From Escherichia coli (GTDB lineage Bacteria > Pseudomonadota > Gammaproteobacteria > Enterobacterales > Enterobacteriaceae): DNA of 50,012 nucleotides. The stretch is taken from NCBI RefSeq assembly GCF_003334315.1, contig NZ_QOWR01000033.1, one strand, 5' to 3'. Positions 12,168-46,904 of the stretch are shown one piece after another. A program made the position numbers and the translations under genes. How positions within the stretch are numbered: the first letter of the stretch is position 1; every line of letters starts with the position of its first letter. The notes beneath the pieces are model-generated. The model made no database searches, had not been told where the DNA came from, and saw only the letters and a list, made by a program, of their open reading frames with translations.

Positions 12168-12181
12168 AACAAAAAACCCAT
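12168..12181. repeat. Candidate attL core (aacaaaaaacccat)
   Basis: Identical 14-mer recurs at 46891..46904 just outside the last prophage gene. Confidence 0.4.
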
Positions 12182-12255
12182 TTATGTAAATGGGTTAGTG
12201 AAAACAACGACTTGCAAGATAATCAATAAGTTAGGTTGGTGGTCAGTGGTGGTTA

Positions 12256-13308
12256 TTACGGGGTAATGCCAACCGCTGCCGCCACTTTGTCGCCACTTGG
12301 CAGCGTTGCCAGAGGATTGAAACGGAGCGCCGTTTCCAGATGATCCGGTGCCAGATGTGCGTAACGCATAGTCATTTTTATATCGTGGTGTCCGAGAATT
12401 TTTTGTAAGGCCAGAATGTTTCCACCCGACATCATGAAGTGCGCCGCAAACGTATGGCGCAGAACGTGTGTGAGTTGACCGCGAGGGAGCACGATAGACG
12501 TTTTTTCCATCACGGATAAAAATTGAAAATAGCAGTCTGTGAAGAAATTGAACCCATCAAGCGCCATGATCTCTTCGTAAAGCTCTTTACTGATAGGGAT
12601 GCTTCTGTTTTTCTTCCCCTTCGTTCTTACAAAGGTAATTCGGTATTTGGTCACCTGTGAACGAGTAAGATTTACGGCTTCTCGCCAGCGTGCGCCTGTG
12701 CTTAAGCATATCTTAACTACCAGTGCCAGAATTGGGTCCTGACGTTTGCAATCAGCCAGTAATTCAACAATCTGCTCATGGGTAAGCCATGCCATCTCTT
12801 TTTCTGCGATGGTGAATTTTCGCATGTTCTCCAGTGGGTTCGGATACGACCATTCGCCCAGGCGGGATAGTTCGCTAAAAACACTACTTAGATAGCTTTG
12901 CTCCAGGTTAATGGTGACCGGGCTTGCTCCTTTCTTCCATTTCTCGCTGAAGTAGATCTCACCTGTCAGGCGTTTATCTCTATAGTGGGCAAACATTTTA
13001 GAGGTTAGATCAGTTGCAAGGGGATTGCCCAGAGCGTCAACCATCAGCAGCAATTTGTCATAGACATGCTGCCCAGCAGTCAGTGATTTACCATGTAGTT
13101 TGAACCATAGCTCAACCACGTCTTTCAGTGTTCGACGATCCACTGATTCACCTAGCCAGGGCTTTGCTTCGGTTTCTTCCATCGTGTGACGCTCAAAAGC
13201 CAGTGCTTCGCCTTTGGTGGCGAATTGTTTACGCACACGACGCCCACTACGTCCGGCGGGGTAACATTCGCAAAGCCATTTTCCTGTGGTGAGTTTTCGT
13301 ACAGCCAT
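12256..13308 (-). CDS. int: Phage integrase (tyrosine recombinase, P2 Int-like)
   Basis: Start taken at MAVRKLTTGKW...; C-terminal HxxR...Y region (LRHTFAAH...MRYAHL); sits next to attL. Confidence 0.9.
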   Translation of the reverse strand: MAVRKLTTGKWLCECYPAGRSGRRVRKQFATKGEALAFERHTMEETEAKPWLGESVDRRTLKDVVELWFKLHGKSLTAGQHVYDKLLLMVDALGNPLATDLTSKMFAHYRDKRLTGEIYFSEKWKKGASPVTINLEQSYLSSVFSELSRLGEWSYPNPLENMRKFTIAEKEMAWLTHEQIVELLADCKRQDPILALVVKICLSTGARWREAVNLTRSQVTKYRITFVRTKGKKNRSIPISKELYEEIMALDGFNFFTDCYFQFLSVMEKTSIVLPRGQLTHVLRHTFAAHFMMSGGNILALQKILGHHDIKMTMRYAHLAPDHLETALRFNPLATLPSGDKVAAAVGITP

Positions 13309-13496
13309 AAAAAATGCCCTCCAATAGAGAGCATTTTTACTGTATGTATAACCAGTGTCAATGTATGAAATCCTGCGACCATACATCTCACTGAAGCCAT
13401 AATGAAGTAGGCTATTCTTTTTGCTATGTGATCATGTAACTTTTGCGGTTAACCTGTGGCTCATTTTTATTTTAGGCGCAGATATAAAAGCAAAAG

Positions 13497-13688
13497 TTAT
13501 CGTGAGTTTTTAGTACAGATTTTTTTGGATTTACTAATAGTTCCATCATTGCAAACGAATTTGCCATCAGAGGTACAGTGAGAAACACCTCCCTTTTTCC
13601 CTGAGCAGGGATAATTTCTAGCATAGGTAGCTAGTGGGTTTAATAACAAAGAACATGACAAAACCACAAAAAATACCTTACCAAGCAT
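13497..13688 (-). CDS. Small predicted secreted Cys-rich protein (cargo ORF between int and cI)
   Basis: 63 aa; N-terminal hydrophobic signal-like segment; six cysteines; AT-rich relative to neighbours. Confidence 0.4.
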
Positions 13689-13703
13689 AATTTCCTCCCG
13701 GTA

Positions 13704-14279
13704 CTATTTAACATACTTGACTGTTAAACTTATAATTTTACCAATTATTTCAATGTCTTCTATCTTACATTCAAAGGCTCTGTTTCCACCCTCGACGAAG
13801 ATTCTTCCACCGGGTAAACGAGTAATGTCACGGATCGTTATTTCGCCATCAATACTTATTACCCATTTACCATCACGTATATCATCAAATTCCTTATCAC
13901 AAATAAATTCAGAATTATTATCTGTGATTACAAAAAGATTCTTGAATGCCGACGGTAGAAATTCTCTATCGAAAATATAAAAACCGTCTTCACACAAGGC
14001 CCCATCAGATAATACATATTTAGCAACTTCCATAGTATTTGTATTACCTGAAGTTTGCTTTGAACCATGCCCGGTTGTGAGCCAATTAAGCGAGGTGCCT
14101 GTTTCAAGGGCGCACTGGATTACCCATTCTGCTGGGAATGAGTCACGCATGTAGCGTGTGGCGAGTGTACTTTTAGAGATTCCTAAATGATCGCACAACG
14201 CCTGTCGAGTCTTGAATCCATAAGCTTCTACCATGCGCTCTATGGCGCCTCGTCCGCCTTTCTCCAAATTCATGGTCAC
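13704..14279 (-). CDS. cI: Phage 186-type CI immunity repressor
   Basis: 191 aa with N-terminal HTH (LCDHLGISKSTLATRY); divergent from apl/cII as in 186. Confidence 0.8.
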   Translation of the reverse strand: MTMNLEKGGRGAIERMVEAYGFKTRQALCDHLGISKSTLATRYMRDSFPAEWVIQCALETGTSLNWLTTGHGSKQTSGNTNTMEVAKYVLSDGALCEDGFYIFDREFLPSAFKNLFVITDNNSEFICDKEFDDIRDGKWVISIDGEITIRDITRLPGGRIFVEGGNRAFECKIEDIEIIGKIISLTVKYVK

Positions 14280-44925: not shown

Positions 44926-45407
44926 TGATGGTGCTGGGATTGTACGTGTTTATGCTGCGCACCGTGCCGTATCAGGAGCTGCAGTATCAGCGCAGCTGGC
45001 GACATGCGGCAAACAGCCGGGTAAACCGACGTCCGTCCACGCAGTTTCTGGGACCGGACAACGACATGCTGACGCTTTCCGGTGTTCTTATGCCGGAGAT
45101 AACAGGTGGCAGGCTGTCGTTGCTGGCACTGGAGCAGATGGCAGAACAGGGGAAAGCATGGCCCCTGATTGAAGGCAGCGGCACGATTTATGGCATGTAT
45201 GTGATTGAGGGACTGAATCAGACTAAAACGGAGTTTTTCCGCGACGGTATGCCGCGCAGGATTGAGTTCACCCTTTCGCTAAAACGGGTGGATGAATCCC
45301 TGTCCGATATGTTCGGTGATCTCAGTACTCAACTGAATAATCTGCAGGACACGGCAACGTCTGCCTTAAGCGATATCAGTAAAACGGTGGGAGGGCTGCT
45401 GTCGTGA
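44922..45407 (+). CDS. U: Tail protein (P2 gpU)
   Basis: 161 aa; position. Confidence 0.8.
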   Translation: MMMVLGLYVFMLRTVPYQELQYQRSWRHAANSRVNRRPSTQFLGPDNDMLTLSGVLMPEITGGRLSLLALEQMAEQGKAWPLIEGSGTIYGMYVIEGLNQTKTEFFRDGMPRRIEFTLSLKRVDESLSDMFGDLSTQLNNLQDTATSALSDISKTVGGLLS

Positions 45408-46504
45408 ATTTCAGCTCTGAACTGCTTAACAAAGGCAACAAAACTCCGGCATTCAGCATCAGTATTGAAGGCAGGGATATCACTACTGTGCTGGACAACC
45501 GCCTGATGGGGCTTACGCTGACGGATAACCGGGGCTTTGAAGCGGACCAGCTTGATCTGGAACTGGACGACGCCGATGGAAAAATCGTGCTGCCGCGCCG
45601 TGGTGCGGTCATTACGCTGGCGCTGGGCTGGAAGGGGCAGCCGCTTTTCCCGAAAGGGGCATTCACGGTGGACGAGATTGAACACACTGGCGCACCGGAT
45701 CGCCTGACTATCCGGGCGCGAAGTGCTGATTTTCGTGAAACACTGAATACCCGCCGTGAAAAGTCGTGGCACAAGACCACCGTTGGGGAAGTGGTGAAGG
45801 AAATAGCTGCGCGGCACAAACTGAAGATGGCATTGGGTAAAGACCTGTCAGATAAACCCGTGGAACATATAGACCAGACCAATGAGAGTGACGGCAGTTT
45901 TCTGATGCGGCTGGCGCGCCAGTACGGTGCTATTGCGTCGGTGAAAAATGGCAATCTGTTATTCATCCGACAGGGGCAGGGTAAAAGCGCCAGTGGTAAA
46001 CCACTACCGGTTATCACTATCACACGTAAGGACGGCGACAGTCACCGCTTTACCCTGGCAGATCGCGGAGCTTACACGGGCGTAATTGCCAGCTGGTTGC
46101 ATACCCGCGAACCCGCGAAGAAAGAAAGCACCGCGGTGAAGCGTAAGCGCAGGACTAAGAAGCAGAAGAAAGAGCCGGAAGCGAAGCAGGGCGATTACCT
46201 GGTGGGTACGGATGAAAACGTGCTGGTACTTAATCGCACCTATGCTAATCGGAGTAACGCCGAACGGGCAGCGAAAATGCAGTGGGAACGCCTGCAACGC
46301 GGCGTTGCGTCATTCTCGCTACAACTGGCGGAAGGGCGGGCAGATCTCTACACGGAAATGCCAGTGAAAGTCAGTGGCTTTAAACAGCCGATAGATGATG
46401 CGGAATGGACCATTACGACTCTGACGCATACCGTCAGCCCGGATAACGGTTTTACGACCAGTCTGGAGCTTGAAGTGAGGATTGATGATTTCGAAATGGA
46501 ATGA
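45404..46504 (+). CDS. D: Tail protein D (P2 gpD)
   Basis: 366 aa; position. Confidence 0.85.
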   Translation: MNFSSELLNKGNKTPAFSISIEGRDITTVLDNRLMGLTLTDNRGFEADQLDLELDDADGKIVLPRRGAVITLALGWKGQPLFPKGAFTVDEIEHTGAPDRLTIRARSADFRETLNTRREKSWHKTTVGEVVKEIAARHKLKMALGKDLSDKPVEHIDQTNESDGSFLMRLARQYGAIASVKNGNLLFIRQGQGKSASGKPLPVITITRKDGDSHRFTLADRGAYTGVIASWLHTREPAKKESTAVKRKRRTKKQKKEPEAKQGDYLVGTDENVLVLNRTYANRSNAERAAKMQWERLQRGVASFSLQLAEGRADLYTEMPVKVSGFKQPIDDAEWTITTLTHTVSPDNGFTTSLELEVRIDDFEME

Positions 46505-46594
46505 TTCTTCGCAATGGAGAACTTTTAAGTTTGCAAAATGGAATAATGCGGTATCATTGTTGTGAATTTAGCAAAAATGGGGAGAACTCGAAAA

Positions 46595-46813
46595 ATGATG
46601 ATTTGCCCACTGTGTGGAAGTGCCGCCCATACTCGCAGCAGTTTTCAGGTATCTTCATTGACCAAAGAGCGTTACAACCAGTGCCAGAACATTAACTGCA
46701 GCCATACTTTTGTTACCCATGAAACTTTTGTTCGTTCGATTGCAACGCCAAAAGAGTCAAATCCGGTTCAGCCGCATCCAATGAAATCAGGGCAGGTGGC
46801 GCTCTCTCTTTGA
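46595..46813 (+). CDS. ogr: Ogr/Delta-type zinc-finger late transcription activator
   Basis: CPLCGSAAH...CQNINCSHTF C4 motif; ggggaga RBS; last prophage gene before attR. Confidence 0.8.
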   Translation: MMICPLCGSAAHTRSSFQVSSLTKERYNQCQNINCSHTFVTHETFVRSIATPKESNPVQPHPMKSGQVALSL

Positions 46814-46890
46814 CGCTGCCGCCATTTTGTCGCCATCGTTAAAAAACAGTGCTTCTAACATCATGATTTTAAACAGCATAAATTTCAGGC

Positions 46891-46904
46891 AACAAAAAAC
46901 CCAT
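46891..46904. repeat. Candidate attR core (aacaaaaaacccat)
   Basis: Identical to the 14-mer at 12168..12181. Confidence 0.4.

Follow-up and report, generated by a model that had tools for sequence, protein, structure and literature searches.

Where exactly does the prophage in this stretch of Escherichia coli DNA (hereafter the window; 50,012 nt) begin and end, and what did it integrate into? The original prediction held that a 14-mer lying outside int and beyond ogr, each copy within a hairpin-forming stretch, is a short att core duplicated on integration into the rcdA–ybjL intergenic region. As it had stated, AACAAAAAACCCAT occurs exactly twice, on the plus strand at 12168–12181 and 46891–46904, with no third copy in the window when one mismatch is allowed. 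Two copies arose in none of 100 dinucleotide-preserving shuffles (expected count 0.06). The left copy lies 75 bp past the stop of int (12256–13308, minus strand) and the right copy 78 bp past the stop of ogr (46813). Sequence comparisons make it very probable that attL and attR of a P2-like (Peduoviridae) prophage of 34.7 kb share these 14-mers as their common core (O), the prophage having been integrated by its tyrosine integrase at the 3′ end of rybB.

Prophage boundaries and the extended core

The phage-specific DNA spans 12182–46890 (34,709 bp; 34,723 bp including one core), which sets the exact prophage boundaries at 12168/12182 and 46890/46904. It is flanked on the left by rcdA (11615–12151, plus strand; open reading frame and RefSeq annotation of identical sequence) and on the right by ybjL (47049–48734, minus strand; open reading frame and RefSeq annotation). 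Alongside int, the element encodes a cI-type immunity repressor (13704–14279, minus strand; phrog_4 transcriptional repressor, E 5e-45) and an apl/cox-like excisionase and repressor, that is, a recombination directionality factor (14399–14620, plus strand; phrog_575 ‘Cox-like excisionase and repressor’, E 6e-31). The final phage gene before attR is the ogr/B late-gene activator (46595–46813, plus strand; phrog_603), whose annotation reads OGR protein in Klebsiella phage KP12 and ogr/Delta-like zinc finger protein in RefSeq genomes. A search with part of the prophage, 12182–37000, matched the Klebsiella phages KP12 and 4LV2017 (Peduoviridae, Elveevirus) at 96% identity over 73% of that segment.

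An independent repeat finder placed the 14-mer as the perfect part of an imperfect 27-bp core (family D8) with 23 of 27 positions (85%) identical; apart from this family, no further long direct repeats bracket the prophage. The left copy, at 12155–12181, is the host (K-12-type) version, ATAAGTTTTAGAT followed by the 14-mer, while the right copy, at 46878–46904, is the phage version, ATAAATTTCAGGC followed by the 14-mer, as assigned by the att alignments and the repeat finder. The sequence of the 27-bp core at CFT073 attR is the same as that at 46878–46904, and the HS attR (TTAAATTTCAGGC) and KP12 attP (ATAAATTTCAGAC) differ from the phage-type core of the window by one or two substitutions.

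Empty sites, attP and the origin of the two copies

We carried out in silico the comparison with an uninterrupted site that the original prediction had proposed, and the unbroken rcdA–ybjL region holds the 14-mer once. A reconstructed attB (11681–12181 joined to 46905–47404) was 100% identical over 1,001 nt to the rcdA–ybjL region of K-12-type strains, for example K-12 Stbl4, and the site is unbroken in 4,294 of 5,426 complete E. coli genomes. Identity to empty sites ends at 12181 (positions 1–200 of a query starting at 11982) and restarts at 46891, or at 46878 in strains with a phage-like allele; the segments 12182–12273 and 46836–46890 are missing from empty sites. The attL junction of the window recurs in 961 genomes and its attR junction in 1,105, and some 1,100 genomes from across E. 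coli share identical junctions despite differing phage variants and host alleles. Analogous junctions are present in Klebsiella. The right-junction matches fell into two classes (query start 475 or 488), which do not represent two phage types; they reflect whether or not the BLAST alignment ran on across the 27-mer's four mismatches.

The attP junction was likewise examined in silico, as had been suggested. Joining the prophage ends (46405–46904 and 12182–12681) gave a sequence that is one colinear piece in KP12, matching over 1,000 nt at 97.1% identity in the order ogr–core–int; KP12 is deposited as a ‘partial sequence’, for which attP-type metagenomic contigs partly compensate. Metagenomic viral contigs such as L030 also match this arrangement. 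Escherichia phage vB_EcoM-813R9 was considered as a second attP and rejected, its record being an excerpt of a prophage with ybjJ and rcdA attached, which therefore represents attL.

A four-way alignment of attL, attR, attB and attP showed flanks exchanged exactly as B-O-P′ at attL (12168–12181, with rcdA-side host DNA to the left and the phage P′ arm to the right) and P-O-B′ at attR (46891–46904). Directly to the right of the 14-mer, the bases are P′-type at attL and B′-type at attR. The reading of the 14-mer as a short att core is thus upheld by the empty-site and attP comparisons. The notion that the core was duplicated on integration is not, as the 14-mer is already present in the attP of KP12 and of the viral contigs: one copy is derived from the phage and the other from the host.

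This pre-existing phage copy also bears on the possibility that the 14-mers are a target-site duplication made by a transposase, or that other strains lost an ancestral 34.7-kb segment through recombination of chance repeats. Transposition does yield short direct repeats around inserts, and short repeats can mediate deletion, but a repeat found in the free phage was not generated from the target. In addition, the element encodes a tyrosine integrase and an excisionase and has arm sites, and the recurrence of the same junctions with varied phages and host alleles in E. coli, with analogous junctions in Klebsiella, speaks against either event, leaving these readings with next to no probability. 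A longer near-perfect repeat, CGCTGCCGCCAyTTTGTCGCCA (12274–12295 and 46814–46835, 21/22 identical), could be taken as the crossover core instead, with the 14-mer reduced to an incidental similarity between terminators. This repeat exceeds the 14-mer in length and brackets the prophage too, lying inside the int 3′ end and just past ogr. Both of its copies, however, are missing from empty sites, where host identity ends and restarts at the 14-mer or the 27-mer, both fall inside the contiguous KP12 attP, and each consists of two tandem 11-mers that fit the arm-site consensus of 186-type integrases. The empty-site and attP comparisons refute it as the core, and we assign it a negligible probability.

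A closer variant of the common-core reading makes the whole 27 bp the functional core, as in P2, with strand exchange centred there and the 14-bp identity a chance feature of this strain. In its favour, LF82, STEC299 and CFT073 carry a phage-type 13-mer to the left of the 14-mer and are identical to the phage over all 27 bp, 9 of the left 13 bp agree even in the window strain, and core-type binding by Int probably uses bases beyond the 14-mer. Against it, the mismatched positions in these 13 bp, four in the window, sort cleanly in HS as in the window: attL carries the host bases and attR those of the phage. The exchanged segment would therefore lie to their right. Moreover, 897 lysogen-type attL junctions have a K-12/HS-type left 13-mer compared with 188 of the phage type, counts that cover lysogens only, as the short-query design catches HS-type lysogens and misses HS-type empty sites; perfect identity past 14 bp is therefore not needed. 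We consider the 27-bp variant highly improbable, and favour the 14-mer as common core. E. coli strains vary in the 13 bp directly downstream of rybB, the LF82/CFT073-type allele being the same as the phage P arm.

The rybB target and its terminator

The original prediction was right about the locus; within it, however, the phage used the 3′ end of a small-RNA gene, rybB, and not bare spacer. The full-length gene occupies 46891–46969 on the minus strand (Rfam RF00110, 105.3 bits against a gathering score of 40), matching model positions 1–79 of 79, and the last model position coincides with the first core base, 46891. The attR core is thus the last 14 nt of rybB, comprising the last 5 nt of the terminator stem and the U-tail. 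No fragment of RybB was detected at attL even at E ≤ 10, and a search for a tRNA or tmRNA target found none.

Folding of the minus strand confirmed that each 14-mer copy lies in a hairpin-forming stretch, and the two hairpins belong to different genes. The right one is the rybB intrinsic terminator (46896–46940, minus strand), which has a stem of 14 bp and then UUUUUUGUU (−23.3 kcal/mol, z −2.85); the descending end of the stem and the U-tail lie inside the core, as supported by the fold and the Rfam consensus structure. The left one is the terminator of the phage int/lysogenic operon (12165–12196, minus strand), whose hairpin at 12175–12196 lies in the P′ arm and has its T-tract in the core: a 9-bp stem followed by TTTTGTTATC that scored as terminator-like (−9.4 kcal/mol, z −2.3). 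At attL, the U-tract of the core thus completes the phage's own terminator. At attR rybB is intact and, with its last 14 nt supplied by the core, the sequence predicts an unchanged RybB in the lysogen.

Prophage integration at rybB has already been published and the site is an established hotspot. A Klebsiella pneumoniae island, for instance, was located ‘precisely within’ rybB (PMC4048246), and a literature search on ybjL and prophages returned nothing relevant, the relevant papers indexing the site under rybB. The site is occupied in about one fifth of complete E. coli genomes. Given this occupancy and the established hotspot, our analysis opens no new question. Its uses lie in annotation, in curing and re-lysogenizing strains, and in the Int/att pair as a tool. 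Two less ordinary ideas strike us as very unlikely: that phage sequence was written into the chromosome at the rybB hotspot, either by successive rounds of integration and excision or by recombination with prophages already resident; or that phage DNA past the RybB U-tail subtly alters RybB termination or read-through antisense to ogr. The latter, if true, would couple envelope stress to prophage late-gene control.

Integrase, arm-type sites and known systems

The integrase is of the phage-186 type, with 56% identity to 186 Int over 334 amino acids (E 2e-139) and a match to the phrog_1 integrase family (E 6e-75). Its motifs ARW(R), HVLRH and RY(AH) align with those of 186 Int. In the N-terminus, MAVRKLTTGKWLCECYP, residues W11, E14 and Y16 align with the W/E/Y of 186; W/E/Y in 186-type and Y/D/R in P2 are the N-terminal discriminators of these integrases (PMC3448106).

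The second repeat, TGCCGCCAyTT-TGTCGCCAyyk, at 12277–12298 and 46817–46838 (both plus strand), fits the arm-site consensus of 186-type integrases, tgccGCCActt (PMC3448106). The predicted P′ arm-type sites are the tandem 11-mers TGCCGCCACTT and TGTCGCCACTT, which overlap the last int codons, and the predicted P arm-type sites, TGCCGCCATTT and TGTCGCCATCG, start 4 bp past the ogr stop. The P′ copies match the consensus fully and the remaining arm sites nearly so; relative to YAYCGCCAYTY, annotated in NC_001317, they carry G in place of A at the second position. Among 36 related loci, almost all have CGCCAY at the fixed core offsets +99 and +110. On the P side, two attP-type viral contigs (L018, L026) carry the motif at −71 and −60, and KP12, L022, L030 and L031 carry it at −60. 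A search for P2-type arm motifs (tgTGGaCa) found none. Between the core and the P′ arm sites lies a match to the IHF consensus, AATCAATAAGTTA (12221–12233, plus strand), one of only four matches to WATCAANNNNTTR in the 50 kb. Matches to CRISPR-repeat models at 12266–12323 were dismissed as chance (E 0.14–0.69, far under the gathering score). Taken together, the analysis accounts for both hairpins and for the second repeat.

We envisage the following mechanism, pieced together from these features and from the prophage's 186-type control and integration module. Very probably the tyrosine integrase recombined attP, between ogr and int, with a chromosomal attB in the rcdA–ybjL spacer, where the gene of the sigma-E-dependent small RNA RybB ends. 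Like lambda and 186 Int, the integrase is presumably heterobivalent, and its N-terminal domain would bind 46817–46838 (P) and 12277–12298 (P′), while IHF would bend the P′ arm near 12221–12233. Both strand exchanges probably occurred inside the 14-mer, and the Apl/Cox-like protein would direct excision. The excised circular junction would read ...TTTCAGGC-AACAAAAAACCCAT-TTATGTAAATGGG...

The closest known elements are rybB-targeting P2-like prophages: the PhiECO1 site class (Nilsson et al. 2011), hotspot #29 (Hochhauser et al. 2023) and Kpn38RybB (Hudson et al. 2014). These share the host locus, the 14-mer, the P′ arm and the arm-type repeats with the window, and the HS and CFT073 junctions align with it base for base around the core. 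Prophages of this class in E. coli HS, ATCC 8739, CFT073 and S. Typhi CT18 were assigned a single common integration site (PMC3448106), and the HS prophage has been deleted with primers rebuilding ...TAGATAACAAAAAACCCATCAACC..., the strain then serving as recipient for de novo phage lysogeny (PMC11195241). In contrast, cargo genes differ, and the window prophage is nearer to KP12 and 4LV2017 than to HS/CFT073-class prophages. The 3′ end of its int runs into the P′ arm sites; in HS and CFT073 an additional gene of 270 nt separates int from these sites.

With coliphage 186 (NC_001317), the window prophage shares a CI repressor, an excisionase of the Apl/Cox type, a Tum-like gene, tandem arm sites containing CGCCAY on either arm and a lysogenic-operon terminator in the att region (in 186 annotated ‘predicted terminator of lysogenic operon’). 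The candidate IHF site of the window, a consensus match, lies at a position comparable to those of the IHF footprints in 186. For both phages the target is a small stable-RNA gene, entered at its 3′ end and regenerated, but in 186 this gene is tRNA-Ile (ileY), with a common segment of 36 bp, and in the window phage it is rybB, with 14–27 bp; the 186 terminator lies in the P arm apart from the core, whereas here the terminator U-tract is the core. P2 shares the gene order ogr–attP–int and, in fully matching hosts of the window phage, the 27-bp core length, but has tgTGGaCa arm sites and a different target, while the window Int carries 186-type discriminator residues. Finally, prophages at the 3′ ends of other sRNA, tRNA and tmRNA genes (ryeB/ryeE, ssrA) keep the RNA gene intact with a phage copy of the 3′ end (PMC3603311); relative to these, the RNA gene here is another one and just its terminator tail, 14 nt, is shared.

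An exact 14-bp repeat and its empty and phage counterparts

The 14-mer AACAAAAAACCCAT occurs on the plus strand at 12168-12181 and 46891-46904, with 34,723 bp separating the two copies and no further copy in the 50,012-bp window even when one mismatch was tolerated; two copies were found in 0 of 100 dinucleotide-preserving shuffles. The left copy lies between the stop codon of rcdA (12151) and that of the minus-strand integrase gene (12256), and the right copy between the stop codon of ogr (46813) and that of minus-strand ybjL (47049). The original prediction, which placed the pair outside int and ogr with each copy in a hairpin-forming stretch, was correct on both points. 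In the left hairpin (12175-12196, minus strand), which scored as terminator-like, a 9-bp stem leads into a T-run; the right hairpin (46896-46940, minus strand) has a 14-bp stem followed by UUUUUUGUU.

We compared the locus with an uninterrupted rcdA-ybjL region, as had been proposed, using a predicted empty site built by joining 11681-12181 to 46905-47404. Many E. coli chromosomes, that of the K-12 derivative Stbl4 among them, match this sequence at 100% identity over its full 1,001 nt. An unbroken site is present in 4,294 of 5,426 complete genomes, and AACAAAAAACCCAT occurs exactly once in genomes carrying it. The predicted attP (46405-46904 joined to 12182-12681) gave one colinear 1,000-nt match, at 97.1%, to Klebsiella phage KP12 (OM835953), where the annotation order in the matched region is D, ogr, integrase. 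Upstream of the core, several IMG/VR loci that share it together with the P' arm carry phage P arm in place of host flank; one of them, L030, shares most 12-mers with the ogr flank and with the int flank. The deposited 'attL' feature of Klebsiella phage 4LV2017, GCAGGCAACAAAAAACCCAT, contains the same 14-mer. The Peduoviridae phages KP12 and 4LV2017 match the searched part of the prophage, 12182-37000, at 96% identity across 73% of that stretch. On alignment, the predicted attB and attP and the two prophage junctions form a classic B-O-B', P-O-P', B-O-P' and P-O-B' set; among complete E. coli genomes, 961 contain the attL junction and 1,105 that of attR. The database matches to both predicted sites support the reading of the 14-mer as an att core.

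Two of the database records are unusual. KP12 (OM835953.1) is filed under Vequintavirinae despite being P2-like, and ON470620.1, 'Escherichia phage vB_EcoM-813R9', contains the host genes ybjJ and rcdA and is therefore an excerpt of a prophage plus flanking host DNA.

The 3' end of rybB as the target

An Rfam scan of the whole window returned a single match above the gathering score, RybB (RF00110), on the minus strand at 46891-46969, scoring 105.3 bits (threshold 40) and spanning model positions 1-79 of 79. Because the final model position aligns with 46891, the minus-strand 14-mer reads 5'-AUGGGUUUUUUGUU-3', a stretch made up of the final five bases of the RybB terminator stem and the U-tail. 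The right-hand hairpin is thus the RybB terminator, and attB is the 3' end of rybB rather than anonymous spacer; integration between rcdA and ybjL had been placed at the right locus, but its target is not plain intergenic DNA. RybB is unchanged in the lysogen since its whole tail falls within the core. The attR-side sequence is identical to K-12, and no RybB fragment was detectable at attL.

At attL, a phage-borne hairpin precedes the same T-tract, and together they form an int-operon terminator. An analogous 'predicted terminator of lysogenic operon' is annotated in the att region of phage 186, and its tail, TTTTTGTTGCCT (20930-20957 of the 186 locus, L011), resembles the minus strand of the attP described here, TTTTTTGTTGCCT (core plus adjacent P arm). 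This resemblance suggests that the attP core may coincide with, or have evolved from, the int-operon terminator.

The assignment of a prophage att core to rybB is correct but already known, given the published prophages and islands at this site. Nilsson et al. (2011) assigned a single integration site to the P2-like prophages of E. coli HS, ATCC 8739 and CFT073 and of S. Typhi CT18 (PMC3448106), and the junctions in the window coincide with those of HS and CFT073. In K. pneumoniae, a Fels-2-like island that Hudson et al. (2014) described lies 'precisely within' rybB (PMC4048246). The locus also corresponds to hotspot #29 of Hochhauser et al. (2023). In the Phollow study, the HS prophage was deleted with primers rebuilding TAGATAACAAAAAACCCATCAACC, and the deletion strain served as the recipient for de novo lysogeny (PMC11195241).

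Core extent and allelic variation

With mismatches, the repeat reaches 27 bp (ATAAGTTTTAGAT plus core at attL, ATAAATTTCAGGC plus core at attR; 23 of 27 positions match), so that the 14-bp core originally proposed stands as the perfect part of a longer one. The phage arm, ATAAATTTCAGGC, is also present in the LF82 and STEC299 empty sites and in the CFT073 attL, and core identity in these three hosts is 27/27. The window carries the K-12-type host allele and HS a third allele, ATAAATTTTAGAT. In both, attL has the host-type and attR the phage-type bases at the differing positions, and immediately to the right of the 14-mer attL is P'-type and attR B'-type; we infer that both strand exchanges would have fallen within the 14-mer. 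Short-query searches found 897 lysogen-type attL junctions with a K-12/HS-type left 13-mer versus 188 with the phage type, and perfect identity over 14 bp is therefore usual in E. coli, not a strain quirk.

E. coli is polymorphic in the 13 bp just downstream of rybB (12155-12167 and 46878-46890 in the window; comparison loci L003, L004, L005, L007 and L009), with K-12 (ATAAGTTTTAGAT), HS (ATAAATTTTAGAT) and LF82/CFT073 (ATAAATTTCAGGC, equal to the phage P arm) types. In some strains, including NZ_CM169472 ESDR8 (locus L006) and NZ_CP067307, ~780 bp containing a serine acetyltransferase gene lie between rcdA and rybB, and the core reads AACAAAAAACCCAC, with one mismatch. Away from rybB, a 28-nt attP-type sequence comprising P arm, core and first P' base adjoins fhuE in E. 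coli DSM 103246 (NZ_CP019944, match H130), which could reflect either a rearrangement or a related phage integrated elsewhere.

Arm sites and the integration module

Two copies of a second repeat, CGCTGCCGCCAyTTTGTCGCCA, agree at 21 of 22 positions. One (12274-12295) falls within the final codons of int, and the other (46814-46835) takes in the final base of the ogr stop codon. We rejected this repeat as the core because it is missing from empty sites and is located inside attP. Each copy consists of two tandem 11-mers, TGCCGCCAyTT and TGTCGCCAyyk, matching the arm-site consensus of Nilsson et al. for 186-type integrases, tgccGCCActt (PMC3448106). The match to YAYCGCCAYTY, which the 186 record annotates in each attP arm, is looser, with G rather than A at the second position. 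In almost all of 36 related loci, CGCCAY has offsets of +99 and +110 relative to the core, and in attP-type contigs it is also present at -71/-60; the motif is kept in HS and CFT073, in which the stretch no longer encodes the Int C-terminus. By motif and position, the 22-bp repeat is a predicted Int arm site. In the window (12256-12298), KP12 and 4LV2017, the final codons of int run into the P' arm sites. In HS and CFT073, an extra 270-nt gene, placed like orf69 of phage 186, separates the conserved arm-site segment from a different int allele.

The window Int (12256-13308, minus strand) shares 56% identity with 186 Int and carries the 186-type W/E/Y residues said to tell 186-type from P2-type arm recognition (PMC3448106); the P2-type motif TGTGGACA was looked for and was absent. 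A candidate IHF site, matching the consensus, lies between the core and the P' arm sites (12221-12233). Beyond int are genes for a CI-type repressor (13704-14279) and an Apl/Cox-like excisionase (14399-14620), and a Tum-like gene is found at 19747-20052. By analogy with lambda and 186, Int would bridge arm and core sites in an IHF-bent intasome and exchange strands across a 6-8-bp overlap inside AACAAAAAACCCAT, and the Apl-like protein would direct excision after SOS/Tum-mediated derepression.

Between the Tum-like and portal genes, the prophage contains a low-GC (35-37%) cargo block (20000-25700) encoding DarT (20520-21101) and DarG (21106-22077), followed by a three-gene set (22739-23836, 23838-24962 and 24940-25641) with a PADLOC Hp1/Hp2/Hp3 match.
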